Below are positions 6,049 to 63,994 of a stretch of DNA of 64,000 bases, piece by piece. The stretch covers positions 51,336,001-51,400,000 of the forward strand of contig OX597815.1 of NCBI GenBank assembly GCA_951406725.2. The letters are read 5' to 3'. A program made the position numbers and the translations under genes. The notes below the pieces were generated by a model, which did no database searches, was not told the origin of the DNA, and was given only the letters and a program-made list of their open reading frames with translations. Numbering within the stretch: the stretch's first letter is position 1; every line of letters starts with the position of its first letter. The stretch comes from Octopus vulgaris (lineage: Eukaryota).

Positions 6049-6164
6049 TATTTATCACAACGATCATTTTGACACATCTAGCAGCAATCCCTCACAAGTG
6101 GGACACTTAACTACTGGTTCAGGAGCATCCAGCAGCGCAGATGTGTCTCATCAGGTGATAAATA
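6049..6164 (-). ncRNA. type I hammerhead ribozyme in the PLE pseudo-LTR (degenerate, G12>A)
   Basis: Minus strand: stem I UAUUUAUCAC, CUGAUGA (6154-6148), 9-bp stem II GACACAUCU/AGAUGUGUC around a 59-nt loop, AAAA in place of GAAA, stem III U-GAUC-G, UU, then stem I' GUGAUAAAUA. Confidence 0.8.
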
Positions 6165-6552
6165 GATACACCGCATTAAAATAACAGTTCCGTAATGTAT
6201 CTTCTCATTTCGTAGAAAGAAAAACAGCAAAAGAAAGGAAATATCTTCATTTACATAGAAGATGAAAAATAAAATCACACATGCAAAAAAGAAATGAACA
6301 TGCAATACAACAAGAAAAAGTATTAAAAATAACCGTTAACAAATATGGATGTATAAACATCCTTGCACAAGCTGCATGGCATGTGTACACTCCCACATGC
6401 AAGCATCTGCAAATATGTAAGCATATGCACACATGTGGTTTGGGGCACTCACAATCACAGAGTGAGTTAAATAGTTACTTGGTGTTTATAAGAATGGGGA
6501 GGTTAAAGCTAAACTTAATTCATCCATACCTTAAAGTAAATTATGTTAACGG

Positions 6553-7839
6553 TTACTCAAATTCATTCCCACTGCATTGTATAAAAGTACATTTATATGC
6601 ATGCAGGCATCTTGAGAGTCTTTCAGAAATTCTATTAATGATCTTCTCATTGGTCCACAGAATAGACAGGGGTTCCTTGGAACAGAGTTGGTATCTCCTG
6701 AAAATGATACTGTATGGTTTCACATGCCTTACTATGGACCAAGTTATGTTGTACTTAATTATGGATTCTCTTGAAGCTGGCGACATGGTTACGATAACAA
6801 TTCTTAAATAAATCAGCCATCTGCCCAATGTAAACATACAGCTCCCTCCTTGTGTGCATGGTACATTTATATACAAGATTTATACTCATAAAGGGGTTCA
6901 TCAATGGGCATTTTGATTTATCTTTGTATAAGCATTTGTCATATTTATTTGTATATATGGCAGTTCCAACTCCATTTTCCAATGTTATTACATGTAACTA
7001 TATCATAAGCATTTGTACTATTACAATTTTGGTCATAATTGGTGCTTTACATTGTGGTTTACATCTCCTTTGTTGGTATTTATATGCATAGGTCCACTAG
7101 ATCCAGTAGGTGGGTTATTGAACCTTTGTCGCATTTTACCATTGTTTATGCGGTGCATAAGCTGCTCTAAATTAGCAGAGTTAGCATAGGATACCTTCAT
7201 GGTGTGCCAATTAAAAATAGCATAATATTGATTAGATCTAGGAAAACATTTATCCAAAGTGGCAAAAAATTTTCCAGTAATCTTGGCTGAAACATGCAAA
7301 CCGAAAATTAGGTTGAACCAGAGGACATCATGATTCCTATATCTGTTGTTTGGATTAATGCATCTAATGTGTTGTACAGGATTGGAACAATTAACAGTGT
7401 TACAAGCAGCTGGATTACTATGTTGCATGTGTCTATGAGTTTTCGTTGGTAGTTCATTGTCTTGACCAATTCTTCCTGGCCAGTATTCTCTATCTGAGTG
7501 AGTTCTCATACCATGATGTTGTGATGGTGTACAATGTGCATTACTAGTGGAGGAATTACCAGTGTTGGGTATGCCTGCTTCTTGTATATATTCAATTTTT
7601 TCCTGCTACCCAGCCCTAGCTAAAGCTGCATTATAATAAGTTGCATGTGATATGAAAATTTTATTATTAGCGGATAATCTAGAAATTCTTGTAGAAATAT
7701 TCTTAACTAGTCCCCATATTATGAAGAGTGGATGGTTGGATGCTATATTTATGTACTTAATATGATCATTTGCTTTATGAAATGGTTCAAATAATCCAGT
7801 ATCAAGACAGAAAGTAGTATGAAGAAAATTTACACTATG
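6553..7839 (-). pseudogene. PLE ORF remnant: RT thumb, linker, GIY-YIG endonuclease
   Basis: One frame runs 7839-7033 with a single TAG at 7606-7608. GIY-YIG lies in ORF 6755-6982 and the C-terminus in the frame ending at 6553. Disrupted by stops and frameshifts. Confidence 0.85.
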
Positions 7840-7939
7840 ATGCTAGATGTGTCAAAACAATTATTGTGATAAATAATAAATTCTTGTATATTCCATCTTC
7901 TGACTTTCATTTACTATATATTTTATACATACATACAAA

Positions 7940-8172
7940 CGTGTGTGTGTGTCTTTGTGTTGGTGTTTGTCCTCCACCACCATTTGATAACCAATGTTCG
8001 TGTGTTTTATGTCCCTGTAACTTAGCCGTTCAGCAAAAAAAGACTGATAGAATAAATCCCAGGCTTAAAAAGAAAATAAGTAGTAAGGTCAATTCATTCA
8101 ACTAAAAATTCTTCAAAGCAGTGTCCCAGCATGGCCACAGTCTAATGATTGAAACAAGTAAAAGATAAAAGA
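7940..8172 (+). mobile_element. SINE family A, 3' half
   Basis: GTCCCTGTAACTTAGCCGTTCAGCAAAA..ATGGCCACAGTCTAATGATTGAAACAAGTAAAAGA matches 44775-44982. Continues the copy at 5755. Confidence 0.85.
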
Positions 8173-8283
8173 ATTCAAAACCAACAAGACCTGGGAGAGG
8201 AAAAGCCAGTCTAGAATTGAGAACACTGGTGAAAAGTCATTGATAGCTCATGCTTCATATGGAGTGAAGGGCTTGGTAAGTAA
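8173..8283 (+). mobile_element. RTE-like C-terminus remnant
   Basis: Translates as V*N*EHW*KVIDSSCFIWSEGLGK*, resembling the RTE end AQDR..WR..V..LC....EG. The two TGA stops fit CGA decay. Confidence 0.45.
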
Positions 8284-8336
8284 TGGTCATGATGAGTTTC
8301 AATAAACTACAGAGGTCCAACACTTAACTATGAAGA

Positions 8337-8557
8337 AGGTGGTGAGTTGGCAGAATCATTAGCACACTGGGCAAAATGCTTAGTAGCATTTCAGCTGTCT
8401 TTATGTTCTGAGTTCAAATTCTGCCAAGGTCATCTTTGCCTTTGATCCTTTTGGGGGGGTTGATAAAAATAGGTACCAGTTGAGCACTGGAGTTAGTGTA
8501 ATAGCCTTATTGCCTCCCCTGAAATTACTGACCCTGTGCCAAAATTTGAAACCAAAA
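8337..8557 (+). mobile_element. tRNA-derived SINE family B
   Basis: Head GGTGAGTTGGCAGAATC, B-box GAGTTCAAATTC, central TTTGCCTTT.ATCCTTT.GGGG..GATAAAA.TA.GTACCAG domain (resembles Meta/MESC-type cores, from memory), tail GTGCCAAAATTTGAAAC. Copies at 25258, 48720 and 53375. Confidence 0.8.
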
Positions 8558-10619
8558 CTATGAATTCAAATGTGCTAATTGGATTAGAAGTGAATATCCA
8601 CCTGTATACAATGTCAGTTTATTACATGTCATGTTCTTACAAGAACTGCTAGAAATTTCGCTTGGTTAAGTGAACAGAGAATGTCTCTACTCAGACACAG
8701 AAGGAGACTTATAGCTAATCATTATCCAACATCCTTAGTGATTTCACTTCATTCTACTACAACAATAGACAGCATTAATACTTGCAATCTGATATGTTGA
8801 AGAAAAACAACAATACATCTGTCGGACACTTATTTAATTTTGTCATGATTAATTGTAATATATTTTTCTCATAAATTTAATATAATAGCAAAGCAAGAAT
8901 GTATCAAAATTAGATTTTAAAATATCTAATAAAATTAAGGAATTAAAAAACAAGACAAAATGAAAAAGTGAGAAAATGTCTCATAACCTATATATACTTA
9001 TTGTTTTATCTTACTTGAAAATAAAATTTGGAAAAGTTTTTTTAATTAGTTTTTTTTTTTTTTCTTTTGTAGTTTCAAAATAAAATCTATAATATCTAAA
9101 TCAAAGAGTTATGATATGAATACTGATGTAATATTTAAGGAAAGAAATATTTTTAATCTAGGAAAGGGTGTTAAACTTTGACCAAATATGATTAAACACT
9201 TTCACCTATTACCATGTTGTATTCTACAATATTCAGATAACAATACTGACTTACATTCCAAGTAGTGAAACCATCTTCTAAAAACCATACTTAGAAGGAT
9301 AGAATTGTAATCATTTTCCCATTTTCTTTTGACATGTTTGGGTCAATTGCTCATCTACAGCTTGAAAATGGGAATTGGGCCAAGAATATCAATCACAAAT
9401 TATTCAATATTAATTCTTAATATATCTCACTGATAACTTTTGGAACTCCTTTCCAGTGCATTGTCTCCATGAAACAGTTTTTCTTTTAAGTGTTAAGAAA
9501 TTATATTTTATTTTGTCTTTTGTAAAACACAACTCCAGCTTGTCTTAAAGTCATGCTAATCAGCAAAACCTAAGTCTTTGTAGACTTTTCCTAATGTAAG
9601 TAATTTACAATGAAGAATTATTTTTAATCAATTTCATTCCCAAATGTTCATTTTACTCTATGGATATTTTGTTTGGCTTTTTTCTATTATGGGGAAAAAA
9701 GTTATAGAAGTGGCTGAAGAAAATCTCTTACTTCATTATTTAGACTAAAAATTTTGTTAGATACTAGTGTAAATTTCATCTTTAAAAATGGAGGAAAATA
9801 GACACAGGCATGGGTGTATAGTTAAGAAGTTTGTCTCACAACCATGTGATTTAGGTTTCAATTCTATTGCCTAAAAAAATAAAATAATAGGGACAAGATG
9901 ACAACAGTGGGGACGCCCAAACTTTATAGGTTTGTTCAAACAGGACTGATCTGGAGTTAAATAACAACTCTAACCAGGTAACATGCTTACCCTATCTGCT
10001 TGTAATTCTTTTGTGTTTATATCAATAAAGTCTAAATTGTTTAAGAATCAAATTGTTTTATTAGTAAATCTAAATGTTTTTGTTCACATCTTTGAACTAA
10101 ATGGATTCTTGCAATTTTAAACATAGCAGAGAAAAAACAAGATCTTATCTGTTAATGAGTTTCAACTGAGCAGGGTTGTTTTGTTGTCTTTTTTTTTTTA
10201 TTTCAAATTCATAATGTTTAAAATGCATATAGTTTTAATGATGTAGATAATTCATTATTTGTCAATACATTACAATGATAATATAAATAAGAGACAGTTG
10301 TTACCTACTGTGGAAAGACAGTAAAAGAAAGCAGGTTGGTTCCAAGTTATCAGAGAAGGAAAGGTGAAGGAAGAGGAAGCTGACAAGGAGGAAGAGAAGG
10401 AGGGGGACAGATGTGATAATTCAGTTATCTTGCTCCCAACCAAAGGAAAAGAGGAGTTACACATGTGCAATGACTCTGGAGGACAGTGAAACATCTATCT
10501 TAAAGACACAGGCCTAAGGTCATGAGATTAATGTTCCTTTTTGTTTTTTCTCTAAACATTTCCTGTTAGTATATAGTCTTTATTGAAAACAACAACATGA
10601 AAAAAAACAACATAACAAT

Positions 10620-10642
10620 ACTACTACTACTACTACTACTAC

Positions 10643-10705
<63 letters not shown>

Positions 10706-10731
10706 TGATGATGATGATGATGATGATGATG
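10620..10731. repeat. compound trinucleotide microsatellite (CTA)n(ATA)n(ATG)n
   Basis: Seen directly. Confidence 0.95.
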
Positions 10732-10877
10732 GTAATATATGATAATACAGCCACCAGATTGAATATGTAAAATGTTCATCAAATAGATATGTTTTATTCT
10801 GTGCAGTATCAGATGTTTTAGAAAATAGAATATATTTTTTGGTACGAACTGGAAAAATAATATAAATCAGAGTAAAT

Positions 10878-10918
<41 letters not shown>

Positions 10919-11369
10919 AAGTCACTGGTGGTATATACTGATATAAAATATATGTAACAGAATCAAAGTTGAATGTAAACTACTTTATCATGTTAGCAGT
11001 CTATAGATTTTGTAAGTCCTTGGTAACAATTTTTTTAGGTTTTACCTAACATTTCTTCTTCAATGCTTGCACACACACACACACACAGTTTCAAATAGAA
11101 AGGTAATGGAATGATAAAGAAAGGAAAGAAATTTCACCATTATTTTTCACATCAATGCAAACTTTATTTGAACAGTTCTAAAAATTTCAAGAGTAATTTC
11201 CAATACGGTATAAGAAAGGAACATGAGACTATCTTTTCGGCAAGTGTTTAGGGCCCTCCCCCCCAAGTTAACCACTATCGTGTAGAACATCTTTAAAGTT
11301 GTTCAAGCAATGACCATCTCATTTTGTTTTTTGATAGTCACAATATATCTAGGACTACATTGTTCAATA

Positions 11370-11592
11370 TTCTTTTATCTTTTATTTGTTTCAGTTGTTA
11401 GACTACAACCATGCTGGGGCACTGCCTTGGAGAATTTTTAGTCGAATGAATCAACCTCAGTACTTAAATTTTGTCAAACCTGGTACTTATTTTATAGGGC
11501 TCTTTTACCAAACTGCTAAGTTACAAGGGTGTAAACACACCAACACCAGTTGTCAAGCAATGGTGGTGGGGAAAATACAAAGACAAACAAAC
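11370..11592 (-). mobile_element. SINE family A, 3' part
   Basis: Reverse complement of the family A tail (TTTGTTTCAGTT..CCATGCTGGGGCAC..CTGCTAAGTTAC). Confidence 0.75.
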
Positions 11593-11620
11593 ACACACAC
11601 ACACACACACATATATATAT

Positions 11621-12640
11621 CAACATCATTTAATGCCCGCTTTCCATGCTGTCATGGGTTAAACAGTTTGACTTGAATCGACAAGCTGGAGAGCTGCACC
11701 ATGATCCAGCCTGACTTTGGCATGGTTTCTATAGCTGGATACGTTTCCTAATGCTAATCACTCCAAGAGTGTAGTGGATGACTTTTTTGCGTCACCGGCA
11801 TGGGTGCTTATACATGTCACAGGCACAGATGCTGTTATGTGTCACCAGCACTGGACACAACTAGGATATCATTTGGTTTGACAGGTCTTCTCAAGTACAG
11901 CAAATCACCAAAAGGCTACGGTCACTTGTCATCATCTCCGTGAGACCCCACATTCAAATATCAAGCTTCATCGCCACATCCCATGTCTTCCTGGGTCTAC
12001 CTCCTCTACAGGTTCCCTCCACAAAGATTGGCATTTCTTTATGTAGCTGTCCTCATCTATATGCATCACATGACCATACCAGTGCAGACATCTCTCTTGT
12101 ACACCACATCTGATGTCTCTTATGCCCAATTATTCTCTCTAGACACTCACACTCAGTTATACATGTACACTGACATTGCACATCCAGTTGAGCATACCAG
12201 ATTAATTACTTTCAAGCCTTTACATGCCCTCGTGATCACAGCCTATGTTTCACTGTTGTATAGTATGGCTGTTCACACACAGGCCTCAAACAATCAGGTC
12301 TTCAACTCTGAGGGAAAGGCCTTTTGTTGCCAACAAAGGTAGCAGCTCTCTGAACTTTGCCCAATCTATTCTTTTTCTAGCAGTTATGCTCTCAGAGCAT
12401 CCACTTCCACTGCTGACTTGACCACCTAGATAACAAAAGCTATCAACTACTTCCAGATATCCCCCATGACATCTGATGGAGTCTGTTTATTGTACTTGTG
12501 CATCTGCCACATGCAAAGACTACTTTCCCTGTTAACCTTCCTCTGATATTGCTGCACCTCTTATATGTCCATAGCTTGCACCAGGTAAACCTTATGGAGT
12601 TTCTACCTACACCTTTTCTACATATCAAGCACTGCTCATA
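11621..12640 (-). mobile_element. RTE-clade LINE, decayed 3' fragment
   Basis: Minus strand gives WCKLWTYKRCSNIRGRLTGKVVFACGRC, IRCGVQERCLHWYGHVMH and RGGRPRKTWD, typical of RTE C-terminal regions, followed by the 3' UTR family seen at 2489. Confidence 0.85.
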
Positions 12641-12695
12641 TGTGTGAGCAGTGTACCATTCCAGATATGCTAGCTAAAATATTCATAATATACAG

Positions 12696-12956
12696 CTATG
12701 GTTCTCAACTATTTTTTACCTATGGACCTCTTCAATTCCTATTTTACTCTACTTGACCCCCTATAGCCATTTGATATTTAGATAAAATCCTTTAAATATT
12801 TTCATAACTAAATATTATCAGGAATTGTATAAAGAAAAATTGTTGAAATATTTTGAGCATTGTAGAAATACAACCAATTTTATTGCATGTAAATTTTTAA
12901 AACAAAATCTTATATGGACCCCTAAGGGCCATATAGACCCTGGCTGAGAACCACTG
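12696..12956. mobile_element. hAT (Charlie-like) MITE
   Basis: TIRs CTATGGTTCTCAAC and GCTGAGAACCACTG, with a perfect 8-bp TSD ATATACAG at 12688-12695 and 12957-12964. Confidence 0.85.
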
Positions 12957-13916
12957 ATATACAGTATATTTGTATTTTGCAAAAAATCAAGCAGCTGAAA
13001 GTTCTGGTGATGATGAGGAAACTCAGCTTAGCTGCCTGTCTTGGCATGACATGTTACTAGAGATAGCATGTTGTAAACATGGTACAACATTGTAGGTTTA
13101 TTCTTTTACATTAAAGTATAGCTACATTTGTACAGGGTCTTGTATTTTGGGGACATTGAATGATACTAGATTGTCAGGCTTGACATGGATGTAGGTTTTA
13201 GACCTCGTGAGTCAGACTGGCTGTTCCTGTGCATCTTCCTCACCATCTTCCAGGGCAACACCTTTTCCATTTTTTGTCTTCTGGGACCATAATGGTCTGA
13301 ATTACTTGAAACTGAGAGAATGTAAGTTTTAGAAGTTTCCATTCATAGCAGTTGTCACAAACTAAAACTGCACAAAGGACAGTGTCTAATGTATGCAAAA
13401 CGTGAAGGGTGAGTGTAAGGAAGTGTTGTTTGGATTGAATGAGACTGGAAGTAGCAATAAGTTAGTTGTAAAAGTTAAGAAGGAGGATGGGACAGATTGC
13501 AAACATTTTATGTCAACAATTAGTACTATAAGTGTAATTAGTATTATAATTGAATGGAGCGGAGAGTGCATTTCAAGATTCATGGGTTGTTTATAAATGT
13601 TATCATTATTGTTGATATGCTCAAAGTAAGAAAACTGATGAAAGGATTAGATTAAATGTTCTTCTGAAGGAGTCAGTTACACATAACCACACTGTTACTT
13701 ATAACTAAAATAAACAGAAGCCAAAGAGGGCCTTCATAAAAAGTAGTTTTATCTCCCACATCTAATTATATTTAAAAAAAGGACACACTAGAGAATGTAC
13801 TCATAAATACAAAATATAAAAAAGACAAATATGAGATGGTCACGGCTAGAAAGTCTTTGATCATAGGTTTGCTCAGTCAGGACTGTCTTGGAGCTAAATA
13901 AGAGTTTGTTTTAAAA

Positions 13917-14249
13917 CAGTGATTATCAAGCATTTTTTTAAAAAATCTATGGACCCCTTTGTTTAATATTTTATTCTGGTGGTCTTCTATAGCCACTCTG
14001 TGTTTAAAAACTAGCTTTATATATACTGCATTCAAAATTTCTATTTTGTTTTTCACTCATTCACTATGTAAAACATTAGATAAATAAACCTAGCTATTTC
14101 TTGCAAGTAAATACATCTGAAGCAAATTTTTTCCATGGGCCCTTAAAATACTATTGTGGATTCTCAGTTTACTATTTTGCTTGCATAGATCCCTAAAATC
14201 CTTATATGGTCCCCCCAAAGGTCATACAGACCCCAGTTGAGAACCACTG
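13917..14249. mobile_element. hAT (Charlie-like) MITE
   Basis: CAGTGATTATCAAGC ... GTTGAGAACCACTG. Interior similar to 46713-47016. Confidence 0.75.
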
Positions 14250-15434
14250 CCTTAAAGGAATAATAAAGGCCTTAACATGAGTGACAGATCATACAATGAT
14301 CATTGAAATATAATATCCCCGAACATAATATAATAATAGTATATATATTTAAAGTTTGTTTTATAAAATAGCAGCAACCATGAGTTTAGATGACACTTCA
14401 TTATACTTTATATAAATAAAGACATAAACTAAGTGTAAAACAGGAAAAAAAGTGTCAATAATAATCCTCATAGAATCTAATATCTGTGAAAAGGGATGAC
14501 TTCAGAAATAGGTTTGTATGGGAAAAATGTATAAAAGATAGAAGTGTATAAAAGTGGGTGTCAAGATAAAGATTAAAAGCTAAGCTAGTTCTAAAAGTAA
14601 AGGAACCTTGAATTTAAATAAAAATTAATATCCTAACAACAGAAGTTTCTAATTAGATACTTCTGATTTATACTAAATATTTTAAAATTCATTTTATATC
14701 TGTACTTTAACAATAGCAAGTGTTTTTAATTCAAGCACAAGACCAGCAATTTTTGAAAGAAGGAGATTAGTCAATATTAATAACACCAGTTCTTGACTGG
14801 TATTTTATTTTATCAATCTCAAAAAGATGGATGAAGAAAAATATCATAAGTACAAATTGTAGCAGAACATTGATGGTAATAAAGAAAGGCACAATAATCG
14901 GAAATGTGCAGTTTGTTATCTTCAGATAAACAACAGAAGTCTTTCTTCTCTTCTGCAAGCTCTTCTGTATATCATTTGTTTTATCAACTTACTATGTCAC
15001 CAAATAGCAGTCTCTATGTTATAATATTACAAATAATCTGTCTTTGAAAGCAAGAATTCTTTGAATGAACTTGCAAATGATATGTAAATAAAAGAAAACA
15101 TTCTTATAACCACTAAGTTGACTAGTTTCCAGTGCTGTGTAAACCCTTATACAACAAGACAGAATAATTTGTCTTATCTTGCTTTGTGGTTGTTGTTTTT
15201 TGTACTCTAAGGTTAATTGTTTAACAGCTCAAACATCATTTCTAACTAATATACATTTTACTGTTTGTTCCCCTGCACCATCCCAACCTGTCATGAATTG
15301 AGTGGGTGTGTAACAATGGTCTTTCTTCATATCAACTTTGTAGCTTCTTTGATCTACAGCAAATACCCTCCATCATCAAACTTATGATACTTTTCCACCC
15401 TAACATACGTTTATAATCTATTTTCTTTTTTTTT

Positions 15435-16811: not shown

Positions 16812-17046
16812 TTTATTATTATCATCAAAGCTGCAAAAACATCTCAAAAATATCAGTATAAACTGCTACTCAGAGATTCACGTTCACGTTCAGCAGGAAT
16901 GGGAATGTGAAACTCTGAGTAGCAGTTTATTATGATATTTTTGTGATGTTTTTGCAGCTTTAATAATAATGCAGCATATTACTCTACCTCCGGTATTCGA
17001 CCACTATTATTTCCTACCATGTTTCATATTTATATGCTTACTTTGG
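16812..17046. mobile_element. inverted pair of short repeats (~74-bp arms), probable PLE pseudo-LTR remnant
   Basis: 16818-16891 is nearly the reverse complement of 16897-16970. Arms carry GAAACTCTGAGTA-like hammerhead 3' halves. Flanked by CA/TA microsatellites. Confidence 0.6.
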
Positions 17047-17057
17047 TGTGTGTGTGA

Positions 17058-18278: not shown

Positions 18279-18613
18279 TTTCTGGTCATTTCATCATGTT
18301 GAACTGTTAATCCTAACACATTTTTTTTCTCTCTCCATTTTTGTCATTCGCTTCCCATATTTTTACCTCTCAATCCTTTCTATTGAAGAGTGTAGGCTTG
18401 AAATAACAAAAAACTTTTTCATTCTTCCTGAGTGTCAAACTTGTTATTCCTTCACCTGACTTCATCTTTTGCTTTCTGTAAATTTGAACTACATGTATGT
18501 ATGCATGTATGTGTCTGTGTACACATGCATTAAATACACATACATAAGTACATAAAATATATACAATAAAATGTCGTGCCTATATGAACTTTGTGGTCAA
18601 GCACTCTGTTATA

Positions 18614-18788: not shown

Positions 18789-19118
18789 TATCATTTGCTC
18801 ATAACCAGTACAGTACATAAGTACAGTACCCGCCAATCCATTGTACTTGAAGCAGACTGGATGGTGGTAAATCTGAGGAGCTCTAAACTAAAACAGTAGC
18901 AGTCATACATCTAATTGTACACACAAGATACAAGATCATCATCATCATCATCATCGTTTAGCGTCCGTTTTCCATTCTGGCATGGGTTGGAAGATATAAA
19001 CACATACACACATATCAAAACAGATAATGAATGAGCAAAACATTTGGCATCATTCTAGAACATTTAAGTAATCATATAAACATAGTGCAGGGTAGTTATA
19101 ATAATTATGTAAAATATG

Positions 19119-19204
19119 TTACAGCTGTTTCTAGAATAGCTAAGCAGGTAGATCATATGTTATCAAGTAAAGAATTTCAGGTAAGCTAAGTATACTGTCA
19201 TCAG
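19119..19204 (-). ncRNA. hammerhead ribozyme remnant (core intact, stems I and II decayed)
   Basis: Minus strand CUGAUGA (19204-19198), 66 nt, then GAAA-CAGCUG-UA (19131-19120). Same 3' core as the motif at 63977. Confidence 0.45.
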
Positions 19205-19227
19205 AGAGAGAGAGAGAAATAAGAAAA

Positions 19228-19275
19228 TATAGAAATGTAGAATATCCTCAAATGAGGATATTCTGCATTTCTATA
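19228..19275. repeat. near-perfect 48-bp palindrome
   Basis: TATAGAAATGTAGAATATCCTCA-AA-TGAGGATATTCTGCATTTCTATA; 22 of 23 pairs are Watson-Crick plus one U-G. Confidence 0.9.
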
Positions 19276-19872
19276 GAATATACAATATCTTTAATTAAGA
19301 ATATTAGTAGTTACCAGTTCTTCAAGAAACCAAAGCATGCTCAGAGTGAAAGATAAATGTGATTGGTGATGAAGGAGTTAATGAAATCCTAAGTAAAAGA
19401 TAATGTCAGCAGTTCCATAGGTGAAGTTTCAAGGATTTTCAGAAAATCTGATTCACTTTCTGTTCAAAGATGGAACTAGTAACTTCCATTATCCTTTGCC
19501 AAGGATTCTCCTTGAAACTCATACCATACCTTATTGTCTTAGATAAGGATAAAGTACATTAGATAATGTTGTTTAAGTAGCTACCTAACAAAATGGGAAG
19601 GTTACAGCTCAAATACCTGTGATCAAAGATCTGTTCTATTAGGGATGAAATAATGCTAAATAATAAGACAAACAAATGGCAATTGAATCGATGAATGTGT
19701 GAATGGAAAGTATATATATTTATGGTGAATAAGTAACTTGTGAAGTTTTAGATTATTGGAAAGGCAGTTTCATGAGGAGATTCCCTACATCTGATTTTCA
19801 GTTAGCTGCTGTTGGCAGAAATGCTTAACAAGGTAAACACATGGATTCTATTACACCAACTGACCTGCTGTG

Positions 19873-40789: not shown

Positions 40790-42905
40790 GGATGGATTGG
40801 AACCTGTACCACACTGAACTACAGCACCCAAACTGGCGTGAATTCTACAACTCTGGAGATGTGAATACTATACTCCAGAGTATCCTGGACTCAATATGGG
40901 CAGCATGTGCAGCATCAGTGCCACGTAAACAAAAAAAGAAGAACCGCCCCAAAAGGGCAATTTGGGAAACTTCAGCGGTCCAACTTGCCAGGAAGGAACG
41001 TCGGACTGCTGAACAAGTTGCATAAATCAGACACCAACAGGAAGAAGCGGAATAAATCCTCCAACCATCTCAAGCAAGTGACAAAAAATGCAGTGCTTGA
41101 ATTTGAACAGTGCATAGCAGCCAATCCTGACAGCAAGGTTTTCTGGAAATATGTGCATTCAAAGCAGAGACCTTACTCTCCAGTGGGCCCTCTTCGCAAC
41201 CCTCACACAAACCAGATCACTGACGACCCCAAGGAATGCGCAGAACTCATTGCCGAGTGCTATGCAAACATATTCACTGTTGAAAGTCAAAATGTACCAT
41301 CTTCACCATCACTAACAGCAAACTCCATAACAACTATGGAATTTACACCTGCAATGCTGCGACGTCACCTTCAAAATAAGCGCAACTATGCCTCCCCTGG
41401 TCTCGATGGAGTTACATACCTGCTTCTCAAACGTGGCAGGCACTTCCTTTTACACCAGCTTTCTATTTTCTTCCAGTACTGTCTCAACAATGGTGCTACT
41501 CCGGAGCAGTGGAAAACTGCCAGTGTCATTCCTCTGTTCAAAAAGGGTGACCGCACATCACCTGTCAACTATCGCCCAGTCAGTCTCACTAGCTGTATTG
41601 CAAAACTGATGGAATCGTGTGTCAGAGAAACACTCTGGAACTTCTGGAGCTCTCACAGTCTCATCCGACCCTCACAATATGGATTTGTCCCTAACTCCAG
41701 CTGCAGTGACCAGCTTGTCGAGTTCCTTGAGGACATTACTCAGATCACTGACAGTGGCTCATGGGTGGATGTTGTCTACCTTGACTTTGCTAAGGCTTTC
41801 AACTCTGTGCCACACAAAAGGCTTATGGTGAAACTCTCTGCAATGGGTGTGGGGGATGACCTTTTTAACTGGTTGAAATCCTTCATCCTCAGCCGAAAGG
41901 AGGTAGTCACAGTTCTAGGACAGCACTCTACACCATATGAGATGTCATCGGGTGTACCACAGGGATCTGTCCTTGGTCCCCTCCTGTTTGTGGCATACAT
42001 TAATGACATAGATGCCAATTTAAAGAATGCCACAGTATTGAAATATGCAGACGACATCAAGCTGTACCTTGAAATCAAGAGGACTGATCCTGATGTCTAC
42101 AACTCTTTCCTGCAATCAGACCTAGACACAATGCAGCAATGGATCACAGACTGGCAACTGAAACTGGCTGTGGACAAGTGTACCACCATGCATTTTGGGA
42201 GAAAAAACCCTGCGTCCACATACTCCCTCCACAACACTGATATCAAGAAATCCTCTTGCGAGCGTGACCTAGGCATCACTGTCAGCAGTGATTTGCGTTG
42301 GACAAAGCATATCTCTAAAATTGTCAAGAAGGCCGAGGGTGTCTTGGCATCACTCAGCAAGACTTTTGTTAGCCGCTCTCCAGCCATCTATTTAAAACTG
42401 TATACAGCTATGGTACGACCACACTTGGAATTCGCATCATCAGTTTGGAATCCCTATCTTGCTCAGAACATTGACCTCCTGGAATCTGTCCAGAGACGTG
42501 CAACCAAACGCATACCCTCCATCAGACACCTACCATATTCTGAGCGCCTTGTTTCCCTGGGCATGGATTCACTGAAGCTCCGGCGTCTGGCGACGGACTT
42601 GGTAAACACCCACAAGGTTATCAACCACCTCACCAACAACAATACTGAACACCTTTTTGATCTCCATGTGTCTAACACACGTGGACATGCCTACAAAGTC
42701 AGAAAACAACACAGCTCCCATGACTTTCGGAAGCATTTTTTCACGCTCAGAGTTGCTGAAGCATGGAATAAACTGCCTGCGTCAGTTGTTGACTGCCATG
42801 ACACTGCATCCTTTAAGGCCCTCATGCTTTCCGAAATCCACCAAAACTACACCTGATTATATATACACTTTAGATGAGTTGTAGTGCACCTGAGCACTGT
42901 ACACA

Positions 42906-53570: not shown

Positions 53571-53610
53571 CTACCATAATATTGATAAAGCATCTGTATT
53601 TTAGTAATAG

Positions 53611-53763
53611 TTGACAAGTGGTTCATCATCGGAAAACTTATCTGTAATAGACCCACAGCTTATCCAGCAAGAAAATCATCACTCATCTGCAGATCACTCA
53701 TCAACTGTACGAGTCCTTAGGATCCAGAATGATGTAGCATCTATAGAGCAGTTACAAAGAGAT
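53611..53763 (+). CDS. candidate exon (LTSGSSSENLSVIDPQLIQQENHHSSADHSSTVRVLRIQNDVASIEQLQRD), product unknown
   Basis: Protein-like composition, weak acceptor ttttagtaatag, 153 nt, donor GAT|gtaaga, phase 0-0. Confidence 0.3.
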
Positions 53764-54959
53764 GTAAGATTACTGGCCAGTGATGTCTTGTGCAAGTATA
53801 GAGACTGTTTCTCTTTGTAGCATTAAGCTAGAAGCTGAAAAATAAACTTGCTGTGTAATGTGAACAGAAGTCAATAGATGGTGCTCCCAAAACCCATCAG
53901 AGTAAGGAATGATTATGAATATTTACAGAGAGAACAAGCGGTCTCTCAGAGTTGTTTATGCATCCAATGCAGTGTGTACCGAACAGTAAATATAAATAGC
54001 TAAGAACTGAAAAGTGCTTGAACTGATTTGCTGCAAGATATAGCTCATTAATTTTATTACTTAAACAGACTAAATATCTATTTCTTATACACAAATCAAA
54101 TGAGATGAGCAAACAAAAGAGCCTCTATGTTATTGCTCAACCTGAAATTATATTCTGCTGTTTTAAAATAAAAGTCCTATATACACTACCAGAAAAGAAG
54201 ATAGAGTGGTAAGGCAGAATGCCTCTGAACATAGGTCTTCTCATTCAGAGATCATCTGCAACTGAACAAAGTTAATACATCAGGAGTTTGATAATTCGCT
54301 ATCAGAATTATGTATTGACAACTTGTGTCAACTAATTTAAATGAAATGGATGCTATAACAATTATACCTCTCTGAGGAACACTAACCAGGAAAGGAAAAT
54401 GAGTACAAAATGGGATACACTGCTCAAATTTCTAAGTGCCAAGTTCTCTACTCTGCATGCTCCCAGCTTCAAAATATAAACTGTCAAAAGAATCACTCTG
54501 CTAGTCAAGTGATCAAACTGGTATGAGAAACAAGAGTTAGTGACAGTTTGGTTTATTAGGTGCAAAGTAACTGAAAGATGTGCAAACTGGTGCTTGTGTG
54601 AGTGTTAAAGACATTTTCTTCAAGTGAAAAATAAAAGTGCAATGCTTTATGACAGTGAAATAAGAGTTGTAATTAATATGAAGAAATAAATATAGAGCCT
54701 AGAAATATTGAATTAAGGTAGAGAAAGTGTCAGAATGCAAGTGTGTGTTCACATACATGTGTATGTACCTTTATGGCCAATTTTCTATACTAGCATGGAT
54801 GGAGTGGTATGCTTGTTAAGGTTATTGTTTTCTATAGCAGAGGAAAATACCATGAATGTGTGTGTGTAGGGGGTGCATGTGTGCATGCATGTGAAGCTCA
54901 CTCACACAAATGCCCATGTTCATGCACCCATTTATACAAATACACGCTTTACATTCATT

Positions 54960-55056
54960 AAGCTGAACAAGAATTTTATCAGAGTCTTATGCTCTGTAGA
55001 CAATGGGAAAGTTAGTTGTTGAATGAGACAAGTTAAAATTATGCATGAGAGAGAAG

Positions 55057-55101
<45 letters not shown>

Positions 55102-55236
55102 TGTGTGTGTGTGTGTACACATTGCTTCTGATCACAATTTACATAGGACATTTCTGCAAGTCACAGATACTATGTGTTGCTTTTTTCCAGTTCCATTTGA
55201 ATTACATGTCTACACTCAAGTTCTTTTTGCTATCAT

Positions 55237-55269
<33 letters not shown>

Positions 55270-55300
55270 GAGAGAGAGAAAGAGAGAGACAGGCAAACAG
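54960..55300. repeat. left arm of a diverged inverted duplication
   Basis: Aligns with the reverse complement of ~57030-57350, for example CATTTGAATTACATGTCTA versus TAGACATGTAATTCAAATG. Confidence 0.75.
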
Positions 55301-56059
55301 ACAGAGAGACTTCTGCCACTCGTTAATGTCCATGCAGGAATAACCTTGCTGTAAACAGGATAGGTAATGGTACGAAATTCCAAGTATTTAGAGTATAAAA
55401 AAGTATTCACTTTCCCCATCTTTGGTCATTTAAAAAAACACACATTATGATACATTATGGGAGCTTCTTTCTGTTTATTTTTCTTTTTGAGTTACAGAGA
55501 GAAAATGAGCAGCACCAAATGATATTTGTAGGAATCCACAGATAGACGAAACTTTTGCAATTAATACTAACTTTAAACATCTGTAAGTTTATGGATTGAA
55601 ATAAGAGAAATGTGGATGGAGATGGAATTCTAGTGTTGAAACTCTGGGAATAAGTAAGTTGACAAATATAGGAGAGACATCACAGAGGTGACAAAAGAAG
55701 AGGTGGGTGTCCGATGGAAATTTCAGGAAGAGGCATGTAACTAGCTAATTCAGGCATATTTTGTGAGGTTGACCAGAGGTTGTATGCTGATGGGTGAACC
55801 ATTACCAATCAGTCAGATGGTCTTATTTCAGAGCAAGTCTAATTTGTGTGTGTGTGTGTGTGCACGCACATGCATGCACACACATGCATGTGCATACATG
55901 TTTAGCTGCACCACTATCCAAGATATGCAAACACCATGCCTGTGTAGGCATTATTTGAGCTTAATAAAGAGTCATCAACCAATCAAAGCTGAGATATTTT
56001 TCACTCTGCTGTCAAAGCCAAGCCTTCGGGATGCAATTTCAACAATGTCTAGAGATCAT

Positions 56060-57025
56060 GGGAGATGTGAACTAATATTTGTAGAGTATTTGAAGCTTTA
56101 AGTTGTATTTTGATTATCTACAGATGGTGGAATACAAAAATGCTTGTTTGATATTTGTAGGGACAGAGTCATTGTGCTCTTGAGAGAGAAAAGGCTCTCC
56201 ATGTCCAAAGTGAAGGATATTTAGTAGAACTCTGTTCCTCTTTATATACAGATAAACTGATTTTCATTGCATATTCTGTCAAAGAGCTGCAGAAAAGATT
56301 CCAAGCATGGAAATGAGAGAGAGTCACAGTATGGTAAATATCAAAATACTGACAAGTACTAGATAGTATAAACAGCCAGGACCATCTGAGAAGTGAATTT
56401 GTTGGATATATAGGAAAGATGTGAGCAGGAACACAGTATTGAATACTCAGAGCAAGCAATGGCTGTGGATACACAAAAGATACACAGGATCTTTAGCAAA
56501 CAGACATTGGACTAAGTGTTGAAATGTGACATGAGTCACAGTAGGTTCGTCTATGAAATAAAGTATTTTTTAGCTGCTCTCAGGGTATAGTAGATGATGT
56601 CTGATACCAAAGTGACATGATTAATGCTAGTGAGTTATAATAAACAGTAGCAGAAGTGAGAAAGAGATGGGGTAAGATCAGAGTTTTTCTTCTTTTTTTT
56701 TTTATTATTCATCAATTGGTAACAAATACTCTCTCTTGCAAAGTAAAGAGAAGATATTGTATGAAGCATATATAAGAAATGTGTTTCTGCATGGCACTGA
56801 ATATAAAAGGGTCTTCAGAGGCCGGAGAGAAATGAGTCGAGTAAAATCTATTGGAAGTGTAATATTAACTTGTATTAAAGACAGAGCACAACTGAGGTCA
56901 AAAATTGCTGGACATTAAAAGACATCAGTCAAAATGTGCAAGACAGAAGACTGCATTGATATGAATATATGAAGAGAATGGACAATGGGTGCTGAATGAA
57001 TAAGAGCTGTGTGAAAAGTACCTGA
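56060..57025 (+). mobile_element. RTE-clade LINE, heavily decayed RT fragment
   Basis: LYTDKLIFIAYSVKELQKRFQAWK (resembling LYADDLVLIA..EL) and LSLQSKEKILYEAYIRNVFLHGTE (resembling LY...VR..MLHGSE). Confidence 0.7.
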
Positions 57026-57029
57026 GACA

Positions 57030-57350
57030 GATGTCTCTCTCTCTCTCTCTCTCTCTCTTTTCTCTCTCTTCCTGCTTTTCTGTCTCTCTCTCTCACACAC
57101 ACACAAAAAGACAACTACAACAACATGGGTATAGACATGTAATTCAAATGAAACTGAAAAAACAGCAAAACACACTAACTATGACTTATAGCAGTACCCA
57201 ATATAAATTGCTCTCACAGAGATAATGGGTACATTCTCTGTCTCTTTCTCTTTTTCTCTCTTTCACTCTCATACATTACAGAGTCACATAATGAGAACCA
57301 ACTTTAGCCAAGCATAGAACATGATTGAATTATTGTTTACTTTATTTACT
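57030..57350. repeat. right arm of a diverged inverted duplication
   Basis: See 54960-55300. Confidence 0.75.
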
Positions 57351-58769
57351 TTGGTTGCCTCATTTAACAAATATTCCACAAACATCCCAACTAATTCAAC
57401 AGATAACATCCATTTCTCTTTCATTGATCCGCATATCAATTCTTTAACTCAACATATTACTTTGATCTCCGACTGTAGATAAACAACTCTGAAAATCACA
57501 ACTCTCTACCACCATCACCACCACTGCCAGCACCACTATCACCATCACTACCCTACACTGCCACATTATCCAACAAAGAACAAGCAAAACAACATCCTCA
57601 CTAACCAAAATAACAGAAAAAAAGAAAAACTAAAAAAAAAATACAAAACCTACATACAAAAAAAGTGATGATAATTAAAAACCTCTGACTGCATTCTTTC
57701 TCGCTAATATTTTCAAACATAATAAAATTCTTTGAAAAGCAAAATCAATTTTGTGACTTCCATTTCCAATGTATTTAGAATATTGACTGCTGTTGAAATT
57801 CACAAAAATAGTGTGAAATTATATGGCCTGAGAGGTAGCACGGTTAAATTTCAATGACAATGTTTGTTATTGTACTACAAGCTCAAGTGCTCTGGTAATT
57901 TCAGACAGCTATATTTTGGCTATTCAATAATTTGTCTTTTCGTAAGCAAGTCAATTTGGTAAATAATGTTGTAATTTTTCATGATAATTTATAGTGGCAC
58001 GCATTCGTGTGACAAGAGTACTAAGTAACCCCTTTATACAAAATTAAACAACATAATTTTGTGTAAGTGGAGACCAATACACAGATTTCCGTGAAATTTG
58101 CTTCATTAAATTAATAGAAAAGCAATCTAAAAACTGTTGTGATTTCTGTCTTTTAGTAACTTCATTTTTATTACATTCTTGTTTGCAACTTTCCAAAATT
58201 CCAATAAAGATATAACAATATTTTTTTTTAAATGTTCATACACAAGCTTTGCTATAAAATACAGTATTCTGTCATAGGTTATGAACAAATTTCACTAAAA
58301 TAATGCAATATTCCACCAGTAATCAATATACTCTCTGTTAATATCACTGCCTTTTATATATTTTACTTTTATTTTGTTTCTACCATAGTTTGATAATATT
58401 TATCAATTTTTGGACCACAAATAAATCTCAGTCCAATGTCAGAAACTCAGTCCCCCCCCACACACACACACACGTGTGCAGTCTAGTGGTTAGGATGTTG
58501 TGCTCATGATCATAAGGTCAAGGGTTCAATTCCTGGACAGGGTAGAATGTTATGTCCTTGAGCATGATACTTAATTTCATATTTCTCTGGTCTTTTCTGC
58601 TGAACATGAGTATCAGCCCTATCTCCCTCCAGCTGTCACACAATATATATATATATATATATATGTATGTACACACACACGTATATATAGGCATGGCCAT
58701 GTGGTTAAGAAGTTTGCTTTAAAACCCCATGATTTTGAGTTCAGTCACATTGTGCAGGACTTTGGGCAA

Positions 58770-59078
58770 TGACCATGACATTGCACCTAGAAAGTTCCCC
58801 TCCAAGGCACAAGTCTGGCAAGGTTGTTTATGAAAGACCAGCAGTTGCCCATGCATACTAGCACCCCTCTCCATGCCACTAATGTTATCCAAGGGTAAGG
58901 CAGAGGTCAATACAACTTGGTACCAGTGACGTTGCAACTCAATTCTACAGTTGAACAGGAGCAATGTGAAATAAAGTGTCTTGCTCAAGAACACAACACA
59001 CAGCCCAGTTAGGGAATCAAACTCACAACTTCATGATTATGAGACCAACACTCTAACCACTGAGCCATGCACCTTCAT
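58770..59078 (-). mobile_element. tRNA-derived SINE
   Basis: Minus strand head TGGCTCAGTGGTTAGAG..GAGTTTGATTCC, then GTTCTTGAGCAAGACACTTTATTTCACATTGCTCC. Its tail matches 23305-23450. Confidence 0.8.
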
Positions 59079-59619
59079 GTTGACCAGGAGTTGACCAGGG
59101 CTTTTACTGATGATAGACAGACATTGAGTCATATATAATGCAAAATGTAATCCAATGACAGTTATCTTTCAGCTTTTAGCTTTTACTTGTTTCAGACATT
59201 AGACTGTGGCCAAGTTGGGGCACTGTCTTGAAGAATTTTACTCAAAAAATGAACCAAACCCAGTATTTACTTTTTCTTTAAGCCTGGCACTTATTTTGAC
59301 ATTATTCATTACCCATTACATATGTTACATTTTCCATTTTGGATTACAGATAAATGCAGATGTACTTCAAGAGGACACAGATTAGATTATAACTCTTGCC
59401 TGTGCTGGTTTCATGTAAAAAGCACTCATTCCACTCTGAGGAGTGGTTGGTGTTAGGAAGGGCATCCAGCTGTAAAAACTATGCCAAAACATACAGTGAT
59501 GCATAGTGCAGTCCTCAGGCTTGCCAGCTCCTGTCACACTGTCCAGCCCATTCTATCATGGAAAGTAGATGTTAAATGATGATGATGATGATGATGATAC
59601 ATATAGATATATATATATA

Positions 59620-59780
59620 TAATGGGCTTCTTTCAGTTTTCATCTACCAAATCCACTCACAAGGATTTGATCAGCCTGAGGCTATATTAGGAAACACTTG
59701 CCCAAAGTGCCATGCAGTGGGACTGACCCTGCAACCATTTGGTGGGGAAGCAAACTTCTTACCACATAGCCATGCCTGTG
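59620..59780 (-). mobile_element. SINE family A, 5' half
   Basis: Reverse complement of the family head. Confidence 0.75.
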
Positions 59781-62319
59781 CCAAAGCATTTCATACTGAT
59801 ATCAGTGGAACATATAAGCAATAAAAAATTAAGAACACTAGGTTATTCAGATCATGCACAAAATGAATTGTAATGAATAATTACAGGCATGAAATAATAG
59901 CACCTGTGCCAGTGCTAAGTAAAAATGTATCCATGCTGATGTCACTTAAAAGGACACCTGTACTAATGTCATGTAAAAAAAAGCACCCATGCTGGTGACA
60001 TGTAAAAATCACTCAGTACACTTTGTAAAGTGGTTGGCATTAGGAAGGGCAAAAACAGACGACTGGAACCTGGTGCAACTATCCAGCTTGCCACCTCCTG
60101 TCATATATTTTGAGTTCAAATCTCACAGTGAAAGATATAAGTGGCAGGCTTAATCCAATGCCCAGTTTAATACAACCACCTGAAACCTTGAGCATCTTTA
60201 GCAGACATCACTCTATTGCCTTCATTTAGACCAAGTATTAGGAATACATGCTTCCTTTCCTCCCATCCACCAGTCTCAGAAGCCTACTAAAAAGTCATGG
60301 ATACTATTCATCTCTCTTGACTAAAAAAAAATAAGAATAAAAAAAATGAAAAAAATTATTCTAAACATAACCTAGACTGCTACTGACTGCCAACATTTCT
60401 CCAAGATGTTCTGAAATACAATAGAATGCACAAGAGCACAGGTAAACTGTATATGTACATAAATAGGGATGGAAATAAGTATCAAAAATTTGTTGTTGTT
60501 GTTTAAATTAAGTTTAGCTTTGATTGAACAGATTCCAGCTACGATGATCCATCTTATTTTTTTTTCTTCTTTTCAAACAAATGTATCGAGGTTTATATTA
60601 TACAAAGTGCTGTTCCTTTGTTTAAGATCTTAGATGTGATTCAAAGGAGATATGGCTCCTATTTTAACAGACTAAATAACTACTTATGATGGGTCCTAGA
60701 TGTCCACTATTAGCAACCAGAAGAGAGAGAGAGAGAAAGGTGTATAAAATATAATAGTAACTAATTCGTTCAATAACAACTTTAATAGAACATTTCAATT
60801 AAACAAAATAAATACAATTTAAGAAAAAGTATTCAATAAAAATAATAGCAACAAAAAAAAAAACTTATGAGTTGTGTTCTTATAAGAATTGTTTGGTTTT
60901 AATTGTCTGTGGCAAAAGGTTCCACTCATTAAAGGTCAAGAATATTTGTACAGAATAGCTACTGGAGCAATTGAATAGTTTAGTAACAAATTTTACTACA
61001 TTACAATTCTGATTCATGCAACAGAAAAATATTTGAATAACACACTAAATAAATTTCATCACATAACTACAGCAGTATTTCTTTTTTCTTTTTAGAAACT
61101 TCACTGCTACAGTTGCTATTGCTACCACAATCCTCAGCCTCATCATCATCTTCACTGCCACCACTACTACCACTTCCATCATTATCAGCATCAAGTGCAT
61201 CTAAACACGATACACAATGTTCAGTGTTGATCTGCTTCCAAAGTGCTAGTGATACACACTTCTTCTATAATGAGATCTGTATTTCACCTCGACAATGATG
61301 CCAAAGCTGTCCCTAAGTTGTATATGATGTCGGTCCCAGAAGCCTCTCTACTTCAATGAATTCATTTATCTTCCATCATTTCTTTGTGACAGATGCCAAA
61401 CTTGTTTCACTAAAGAATCTTTCTTGCAGCCCCTTAGGAATACTGTAGGTAAAACTCAAGTTTCTTCTTAATTCATTAGCAAAGAAGCTTAGAGAATCAC
61501 AGTCAATTTTACTATTTTTCACTCAGATATAGGATGAGTGATATAATCTTATGATAGAAAACAGAAAGACAGTTATTATAACCCAGTCTCTGATTTTTGT
61601 TGGATTTTTATTTATCTGTTTTATTTTTTTTGTTCAAGAAGTTATATTATTACCACAAATATATGAAAGAAAAAATTCCCTAGTCAAATTATTTAAAAAT
61701 AAATGAAAAAATATTAAAAAAAAACTATGCAAACTTAATTTGTAATTTAAACCTAAAAACTGCAATTTTAAACCAAATACTCCATCACTTTACACTTTCA
61801 ATAGGAAAATTATATTTTTCTTTAAAAATAAATATATGTCAGAATTTATATATTCCAACACAGATTATTCATACATACCACTCACTGTATGATCTCATTT
61901 TGTGTAACTACATATACTTACAAATGTGTATTTATATGAAATAATGTTGAAATCAATTTTTTATTTTTAAAATAAAAAAAGTTTCTTTCATGGACTCAAG
62001 CATGGTTATGTGGTTAAAAAAGTATTCAACAAACTGGTAGAGTATGGCTTTTGGTTTGATTCCACTGTGTAACTACATCTTAGGCAAGTATTTTGTCCTA
62101 TAGCATCAGGTTGACCTCATGCTCTGGGAGTAATATTTAGGAGTCAGTAACAGTGTTGAAGCACATCATATGTGTGTATAAGCACATACATGTGTGTGTG
62201 TGTGTGATTGTGTGTGTGCATGTGCACATGAAGATGGATCTCCATTAGTTTCAACAATGAGTGTTCACTTATTCTGAATGAACTATTCTTTGAATTAAGT
62301 CACTCAGACATGTGAAACC

Positions 62320-62549
62320 TTAACCATAATAGCATTTAAACCAGCAGTATCTGACATAAAATATTCTACCCATTTTATGTCCAAACCACCTAGATCCAGA
62401 CTTTCTCATCTACCCTGCAATGTTACTCTGAAAATGAACAAACACATAATCAGAATCTTGAAATTTCAAGATAATGCACAATAAATTCAAAACAATGTAA
62501 ATAAATAAGCATTACAATCAACAAAATAGCTTGAATGCTAAAGGATTTA
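62320..62549. mobile_element. piggyBac-type MITE, decayed ends
   Basis: Interior collinear with 37086-37313. Confidence 0.7.
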
Positions 62550-63910
62550 TGTAATTCTCAGGTGGAATCAATGTGACACAGCGTGACTAGGCTGAGCTTT
62601 TGAATAACAAGCACAAATCCTTCCAAATGTTTTCCAAATGTTTCTGTCAATCTAGTTCCACACACAAGGTTTGGGCTAACCCAGGGCTATGATAAAAGAT
62701 ATTTGCTCAAGATGCCATGCAGTGGAACTGAACTTAGAACCTTGTTATTGTAAAGTAGTTTTCTTAGCCATTCAGTCAAGCTGCATCCAAAAGTTACTTA
62801 GAATTAATTTAAACCATGTATATTTAACTCACCAAACAATTATCCCACCAATTATATGAGTGGAAATTGACAAGTCAAGCAGAAAGAACCAGAAGTTCAT
62901 TTTTACTTAAGGTAGATTTAGTTATTTGATAAATAGAAAGTGAGAAAATATGTAACAGATGAAATACTAAGAGTACTTGTAGGTGGTGCCCTCGGGTAGT
63001 TACAGATCAAAGACTGACACTAGTAAAAGAATAAAAGAATATGGTAGGAAAATAGCCAAACTGGTAGAGTATGGGACAAAATATCATATGATACTAGGTT
63101 ACATCCTTTTATATTCTGTGTTCAAATCTTACCCAGGTTCACTTAATTTTCATTCTTCTGAAGCTGTTAAAATAATTTACACACAATAAAAAAAATACTG
63201 GGGATAACATAATTAGCTGTAACCCAGAAGGTAGTACTCCAGTATGACCATTGTCTAATGACTGAAACCAATAAAAGAATTTAAAGTAAATACAATTTAT
63301 AGAATTAGTTTGCATTGTTCACATCACACTTCTCTCGAGGATGAACAAGATGTTCTTCCAATTCTTGCTGAATTATCAACAGATCTGTGGATTACACCTA
63401 ATAATTTGGCCAACTACCTCTCTATTAAATCAGAATTGATCTGGGTTTCAATAACGACAATAACTATTAACATTTTAATTACATATTTATTCTAAGACTG
63501 GTTTCAACATTGATCATTATTGATTTCATTTGACTTTTCAAAATTTCATATCCCTCAACAATTACAATTACTTCCTTTCTATGATCAAATGAAGGTCAAC
63601 TTTTTTGCTGAAAATAAAAATAGCAACCAAGTCTATTTCACATCGCACTCCCTCACTGGCAGTTAATAATGATAGTGCTGACTGAGAGAGGACCTCATTC
63701 AGAGCACTTTGACCTGTCTCAAGCAAATTAATCACCAAATGAATAACGAATCTCTTGTCTATTTGTTCATTAGTTATTTGTATTACAACCACTTCTTGTT
63801 CCCAAACTAATCATGAAGAATAAAGAAGAGAAAATAATAAGGATAATTTATCAAATAAGTGTTTCACAAGATTGTTAAGGTATATAAAAAATATATAAGA
63901 TATAAAGATT

Positions 63911-63994
63911 TTGCTCTGATGAAGCTATAAGGTGCTACATAAACACCCAACTATGAATGCATTGTGTTTTATGCCAGAAACAGCTGTAAGCCAA
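63911..63994 (+). ncRNA. type I hammerhead ribozyme candidate with intact catalytic core
   Basis: GCU (63913-63915), CUGAUGA (63916-63922), 54-nt stem II region, GAAA (63977-63980), C-AGCU-G, UA, AGC (63989-63991). Predicted GUA cleavage after 63988. Confidence 0.65.

Follow-up and report, generated by a model that had tools for sequence, protein, structure and literature searches.

Hammerhead ribozymes have already been described in the Hydra clade of the retroelements known as Penelope-like elements (PLEs) (Craig et al. 2021, PMC8557442). The ribozymes of PLEs cut weakly and as dimers (PMC4209133; PMC6765202); one of them is assisted by protein, and its cleavage is dispensable for insertion in vitro (PMC11167929). 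Animal retrozymes, in turn, have been proposed to derive from PLEs (bioRxiv 10.64898/2026.07.22.740005). Among other accounts, the "long helix II" of PMC13725137 amounts to 6-8 bp, a viroid is presented with an unusually long helix II whose length is not given in the text concerned (PMC3705267), PMC10085705 concerns permuted hammerhead forms, and 235 Rfam hammerheads are listed in squid (PMC6962438). U4C, a change in the core, occurs naturally and lowers activity in vitro (PMC3088659).

Here we consider a 64-kb stretch of the Octopus vulgaris genome (assembly GCA_951406725.2, contig OX597815.1, forward-strand positions 51,336,001 to 51,400,000), called the window and numbered from its first letter, together with the 2.8-Gb genome that was searched from it. 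Three loci in the window, A, B and C, carry hammerhead motifs with an exceptionally long stem II. They probably stem from the 3' ends of Hydra-clade PLEs and of short non-autonomous passengers, in which stem II has grown to a domain of 45-106 nt that is still paired at its base. A first-pass annotation, made by a model from the letters and a list of their open reading frames (ORFs), had seen in them a candidate ribozyme-bearing mobile RNA system. A separate system of this kind is not supported: the linked ORFs are those of Hydra-clade PLEs, whose hammerheads were already described. The motifs appear instead to be a real and abundant variant of a known association between ribozyme and retroelement, with self-cutting predicted.

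Long-stem-II hammerheads in the window

The three loci are laid out as follows:

6050..6163, minus strand: locus A, type I hammerhead; core CTGATGA at 6154-6148, 77-nt stem II domain at 6147-6071
6070-6059, minus strand: 3' core of locus A, AAAA T GATC G TT; predicted cut after 6059
6163-6155 paired with 6058-6050, minus strand: stem I of locus A
19115..19213, minus strand: locus B hammerhead; core CTGATGA at 19204-19198, 66-nt stem II domain
19131-19120, minus strand: 3' core of locus B, GAAA C AGCT G TA, with AGCU loop; predicted cut after 19120
63913..63991, plus strand: locus C hammerhead; core CTGATGA at 63916-63922, 54-nt stem II domain
63977-63988, plus strand: 3' core of locus C, GAAA C AGCT G TA, with AGCU loop; predicted cut after 63988

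As a pattern, the three loci stand above the shuffled background: the descriptor of the first-pass annotation finds 3 matches in the window against 0.067 per dinucleotide shuffle, none of 300 shuffles reaching 3, and 2 matches against 0.023 per shuffle when G12 is required. The stem III that it described, one base pair closed by a palindromic loop, needs amendment. The loops are palindromic, but stem III has 2 bp in all three loci if A15.1-U16.1 is counted, and the GAUC loop of locus A is specific to this copy, the family majority being AAUU (AATT in most of 30 copies).

Alignment to family copies reveals damage in all three window copies: A, B and C are type I hammerhead motifs left in the genome as dead copies. 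Locus A is probably inactive because it carries the copy-specific changes G12A and C15.2U, the 3' strand of stem I is decayed or lost in B, and C is 5'-truncated at the core. Folded singly, neither B (z +2.2) nor C (z +1.3) gives a hammerhead; A folds well (z -4.9), but with its core paired. An Rfam search of the window at E<=1 returned no hammerhead match, and for the Hammerhead_1 model over 20 loci there was one sub-threshold match, on a short motif, among the matches listed (150 of 351 rows).

Abundance and pairing across the genome

A genome-wide search with stem II extended to about 100 nt, as the first-pass annotation had proposed, was run with the pattern CYGAYGA-N-GAAACANNTGTM, which covers exact cores with an ANNT loop only, and with the reversed pattern as control. 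Stem II domains of 45-106 nt gave 13,720 matches against 517 in the control, a 26-fold excess, divided between 45-75 nt (11,293 against 400) and 76-106 nt (2,427 against 117). Spacers of 14-44 nt yielded 7,235 matches against 88, and the core CTGANGA with a spacer of 9-26 nt, the published length limit, 5,037 against 48. Long forms outnumber those of published length only within the ANNT-tetraloop class, other short families such as those at 16909 and 18383 being uncounted.

Pairing was assessed on the first-listed matches on contig C1, comprising nearly all of the 100 listed at 45-75 nt, about 35 at 76-106 nt and a few short ones. The distinct contexts obtained number 157, of which 141 are long, and BLAST groups them into 59 clusters (17 multi-member), a clustering that over-splits B-like and C-like copies. 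In 102 of the 141 long matches the inner letters of loop III, left free by the pattern, form a palindrome, and four different palindromes occur. Stem I forms 2.86 of 4 possible pairs with its own partner, compared to 1.79+/-0.11 across clusters (maximum 2.22 in 2000 controls), and basal stem II forms 4.44 of 6, compared to 3.38+/-0.11, with none of the 2000 controls coming close. The three stems enclose the core and stem I has the open end, as in type I hammerheads. Both stems are present in 84 of the long matches, and only two matches hide a short hammerhead inside. At the base of stem II, 31 well-paired clusters divide into 15 with a flush junction, 14 with an extra nucleotide on both sides and 2 with one on a single side.

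Genome counts and within-cluster pairing bear out the earlier suggestion that this genome abounds in PLE-related families whose stem II is expanded. The warning that length-capped searches would miss them was equally justified. The published descriptor of minimal hammerheads (2014), with a loop 2 of 3-10 nt and a stem II of 3-7 bp, has a limit of about 26 nt; it passes 0 of the 141 long matches, which fail by length alone, and 94 pass with loop 2 allowed up to 100. Only 2 of 10 short matches pass it, because of U4C and decay.

Repeat families and their probable Hydra-clade carriers

Each window motif is a decayed member of its own dispersed repeat family. Genome searches returned 2607 first-look candidates for locus A (40 scored, 83-87% identity), 259 for B and 659 for C (40 scored in each case), and a 24-nt tag of family C has 210 exact genome copies against 0 for the control. 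Family membership of the loci at 19119 and 63911, on which the first-pass proposal had been staked, was found for both, along with conserved basal pairing.

Majority sequences were folded in place of decayed single copies. The rows excluded were, in family C, L237, which lies on the wrong strand; in the folding of family B, L042; and one 69-nt match of family D and one 78-nt match of family E, both with internal duplications. Stem II closes in the family majorities, including those of B and C, unlike in their single window copies. The conserved core CUGANGA...GAAA...UH is present in the majorities of A and C, and the majority core of B is CCGAUGA (U4C). A C stands at position 4 in 10 of 30 copies of family A and 12 of 22 of family B, with G5A in others, a distribution that suggests a CCGA source decayed by CpG mutation in both. 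The 8-nt self-complementary stem III arm ACNNNNGU recurs in all seven folded families, A, B and C included, and the core-open fold of the majorities lies 1.6-6.1 kcal/mol above the minimum free energy. RNAalifold gave no structure on the decayed copies of family B.

The carrier of family A is visible in the window itself:

6001..7838, minus strand: broken, 5'-truncated Hydra-clade PLE; reverse transcriptase (RT) thumb at 7842-7030, linker and GIY-YIG at 6991-6559
Downstream parts of this PLE, minus strand: 3' untranslated region, hammerhead and a tail of ~50 nt
7839..7920, plus strand: inverted short arm of element A, with the 3' hammerhead part and tail; abuts the truncated 5' end

In agreement with the first-pass annotation, locus A alone is accompanied by a PLE ORF, which matches the full-length Hydra-type protein P0005; none was assigned to B or C. 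The A hammerhead lies downstream on the same strand in 18 of 30 loci picked by this ORF (window included). Family A copies display a C-terminal GIY-YIG after the RT, a linker CSCREKSKC (CxCX5C), CxLCSEE (CxxC before E) and no CCHH, and the CxH motif is seen as RCLH in L113 and L116. From these motifs, defined in PMC8557442 and compared by eye, and from a by-eye likeness of the RT to Hydra-1_Obim, the carrier appears to be a Hydra-clade PLE. An assignment to Neptune was rejected once the motifs had been checked. With the PLE fragments as queries, Pfam gave no useful match and word-index protein searches found nothing; two non-PLE peptides from short interspersed elements (SINEs) were removed from the query set.

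In four copies of family D, GIY-YIG remnants lie 295-487 bp upstream, and two copies of family E have them 1.1-1.2 kb upstream. In a tree of 23 GIY-YIG rows, with no named reference proteins among them, A, D and E each form a group of their own with support, and the families of 76-77 nt form a weaker one (90/83). Because its backbone is unresolved, the number and direction of stem II expansions cannot be read from it. Hammerheads of 20 nt and 51 nt sit on sister GIY-YIGs within one 100/100 clade: arm length varies within one lineage, which counts against a special function of the arm.

Tolerance or function of the long arm

It is conceivable, if unlikely, that the long stem II acts as a domain with a function, as a lineage-specific docking site for the Hydra RT-endonuclease or as a scaffold for tertiary contacts, and that non-autonomous families keep it in order to be copied. 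The majority sequences lend this some weight, since they form a basal helix of 6-12 bp that leads through an internal loop or a junction to a hairpin at the distal end (in C, a helix of 11 bp and a hairpin of 7 bp with an internal loop between them) and fold better than shuffles in families C (z -8.0), F (-7.7), D (-4.1) and E (-3.6). Two-sided changes common to several copies are found in C (A-U/G-C, 14/10) and F (G-C/A-U, 6/6), long forms occur on at least five deeply diverged GIY-YIG lineages, and the protein assistance reported for one PLE hammerhead (PMC11167929) points the same way. However, the majorities of A (a branched arm), B (an interrupted hairpin) and G fold weakly (z -1.6, -2.4 and -1.9). 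With one copy per cluster, the median z of the arm interior is -1.0 against -0.35 for the flanks, and it falls below -2 in 15 of 59 clusters against 13 of 59. The arms share neither sequence nor length, the sampled long matches contain no excess of pseudoknots or other pairing between arm and flanks, and short-stem Hydra families thrive in the same genome. A plant precedent of ~53 nt (PMC8557442) likewise counts against a special role of the arm.

A bolder version can be offered only tentatively. In this lineage stem II of the Hydra elements would have become an RNA domain, specific to each family and 50-100 nt long, that their RT-endonuclease recognises, passengers keeping the domain, one of them from captured hAT antisense DNA, would get copied, and more than 10,000 ribozymes would escape length-capped searches.

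The longest well-folded arm, 96-102 nt, belongs to family F (L099, L102, L170, L172, L180, L321-L323 and L326), in which six two-sided changes were counted and 14 copies have no ORF upstream.

Families B and C as probable passengers

Both families have elements in the window:

19027..19515, minus strand: family B element; sense arm 19435-19027, inverted arm 19452-19515
From locus C, plus strand: family C element, extending ~170 nt beyond the window, as far as a TA repeat

In both families the 3' ends are clustered (in B at +112 in 13 of 32 arms) and the 5' ends scattered. Arms in both orientations occur in 4 of 43 family B and 13 of 45 family C loci, compared to 3 of 30 in family A. A fixed tail, 5' truncation, an inverted arm and microsatellite flanks, the last judged by eye and uncounted, are insertion traits like those of PLEs. 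The core and basal stem of B resemble a family of 49-51 nt, one copy of which (L255) has a Hydra GIY-YIG 985 bp upstream.

Long B copies extend upstream into antisense hAT-transposase DNA, of which the window copy stops short. The match is to P0001 (E 3.7e-21, with PF05699; the Pfam E of 0.005 is below the cutoff). We read this DNA as probable captured cargo, the alternative being a hAT element that carries a PLE end. In L154:534-1892, L144, L148 and L142 the B hammerhead is joined to an internally deleted antisense hAT transposase. A link between family C and the GIY-YIG beside L167 was rejected, since 30 loci of that protein family carry a different short hammerhead (~31 nt) and a C-like one is found only at L187 itself.

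Whether B, C and similar families are retrozymes moving through hammerhead-cut circular RNAs has to be weighed against these traits, and the proposition is decidedly improbable. In its favour, a PLE origin of animal retrozymes has been proposed, as cited above, and other families do form tandems: 534-bp units with three identical hammerheads in L168, a 1.6-kb repeat in L170 and a 548-bp pair in L176. The tandem arrays for which the first-pass annotation had proposed tests are thus real for L168 and L176, but there are none for A, B or C in the fetched loci; the 43 B and 45 C loci, of ~3 kb each and not genome-wide, contain no head-to-tail unit. Moreover, the 5' ends of B and C are scattered instead of lying at the predicted cut site, and upstream of the core C copies have at most ~110 nt in common. 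That CTGATGA and GAAA merely coincide in AT-rich DNA by chance has next to no standing outside some singletons: window B and C do not fold as hammerheads, Rfam has none in the window, ~4% of genome matches are expected from the control (517/13,720) and some singletons are clearly noise (L288), but the excess over the control, the repeat families and the cross-cluster covariation refute it for the families.

The L168 array (L168:2515-4394; G000:C1, ~5,011,000-5,012,900) lies between microsatellites, consists of identical units, three of which bear a hammerhead with a 50-nt stem II, and is retrozyme-like. A search with the L168 unit listed no RNA run; contigs from runs presumed to be RNA cover this unit and family A, with neither ends nor strand, and carry no weight as evidence. 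The hammerhead of the L176 pair has a 33-nt stem II, and the L170 repeat belongs to another long-stem family.

Proposed mechanism

If the motifs derive from Hydra-clade 3' ends and their passengers, as we prefer, the stem III arms of two hammerheads in active source elements would pair with each other, perhaps with help from the protein of the element, and cutting would follow after GUC (A) or GUA (B and C), at a point 50-170 nt short of the end of the RNA. Copying of the RNA from its tail into TA microsatellites would fall to the Hydra RT/GIY-YIG enzyme, which B and C would borrow; a start at the tail would leave the 3' ends fixed, truncate the 5' ends to varying extents and produce inverted arms. 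The distal arm would be likely to expand since it is directed away from the core and depends on no contact between loop I and loop II, and it would therefore be mostly tolerated rather than required.

Several points weigh against this account. Cleavage and RNA ends stand as predictions, and the mobilisation of B and C by Hydra enzymes is suggested by insertion geometry, with no assignable PLE ORF beside any B or C copy in the fetched loci. A same-strand Hydra remnant within 2.6 kb accompanies only 13 of the 141 long matches (8 clusters) and an opposite-strand one about 10, some of them inverted partners, both as raw counts without background. One or both stems are missing, through decay or chance, from 57 long matches. 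The U4C change looks ancestral in A and B, and lower activity is reported for it (PMC3088659). Finally, the strong folding of the C, D, E and F majorities relative to shuffles, together with some two-sided changes, suggests that the arm is under more constraint than tolerance alone would leave.

Short-stem motifs and other features

Two short-stem remnants reported by the first-pass annotation are present, with a changed identity, and the window also holds an open frame of another kind:

16845..16970, 16909-16921 on the plus and 16879-16867 on the minus strand: head-to-head 3' halves of a short-stem hammerhead family
18378..18415, plus strand: decayed copy of an abundant minimal hammerhead-like motif, 5' core CUGUNGA (A6U); at 21 other loci among 338
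40865-42856, plus strand: 663-aa open frame with RVT_1

The first is a perfect hairpin (z -11) and holds no complete ribozyme; the second is the remnant noted at 18383. The open frame is a fragment of a retrotransposon without long terminal repeats (non-LTR), which we take to be CR1-like, and is unrelated to the hammerheads. In L083:1-1500, an AAT repeat and then a truncated non-LTR RT, presumably R4/Dong-like, come after a hammerhead with a 49-nt stem II; the two are probably independent insertions.

Comparison with known hammerheads

The octopus motifs share with the Hydra PLE hammerheads of PMC8557442 the type I topology, a position near the 3' end and downstream of a C-terminal GIY-YIG, a short palindromic stem III and (TA)n targets. 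A stem II base flanked on either side by one additional nucleotide is common there and is seen here in 14 of 31 well-paired clusters. The octopus motifs likewise resemble the minimal PLE hammerheads of metazoans (Cervera and De la Pena 2014, PMC4209133), which are of the dimer type with a palindromic loop 3, have a helix II larger than usual (7-8 bp) and occur mostly as single truncated copies. The descriptor of that study requires a loop 2 of <=10 nt and CUGANGA, and both long arms and CCGAYGA cores fall outside it. Animal non-LTR retrozymes (PMC7229834; bioRxiv 10.64898/2026.07.22.740005) are also non-coding and PLE-related with a type I hammerhead, a description that L168 fits. They are, however, defined by tandem units and circular RNAs (PMC7229834), whereas A is linked to an ORF, and B and C occur in the fetched loci only as truncated single or inverted arms.

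The literature covered contains no stem II of 45-100 nt in animal PLE hammerheads; Lunse et al. 2017, Arkhipova et al. 2017 and some supplements lay outside the search and might contain such forms or descriptors with wider limits. The nearest precedent is in Selaginella, where PLE-X1_sMoe and PLE-X1_sTam have a stem II region of ~50 nt, in the former 9 bp with a 35-nt loop (PMC8557442 File S2). These differ in being two plant elements without an endonuclease, flagged as non-canonical, and not a genome-wide animal class (PMC8557442).

Counts of invertebrate ribozymes rest on short-loop-2 descriptors and may miss much of the ANNT-tetraloop class, because long forms outnumber those within the limit. 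Related elements moreover offer a natural series of stem II lengths (about 20, 29, 50 and 61-66 nt), which makes the role of the PLE hammerhead testable, given that its cleavage is dispensable for insertion in vitro. In all 26 Hydra rows of PMC8557442 File S2 the stem II domain measures 10-24 nt; here it spans 45-106 nt, often with internal loops or branches, so that the arm appears to reach two to four times the length found in the published relatives covered here.

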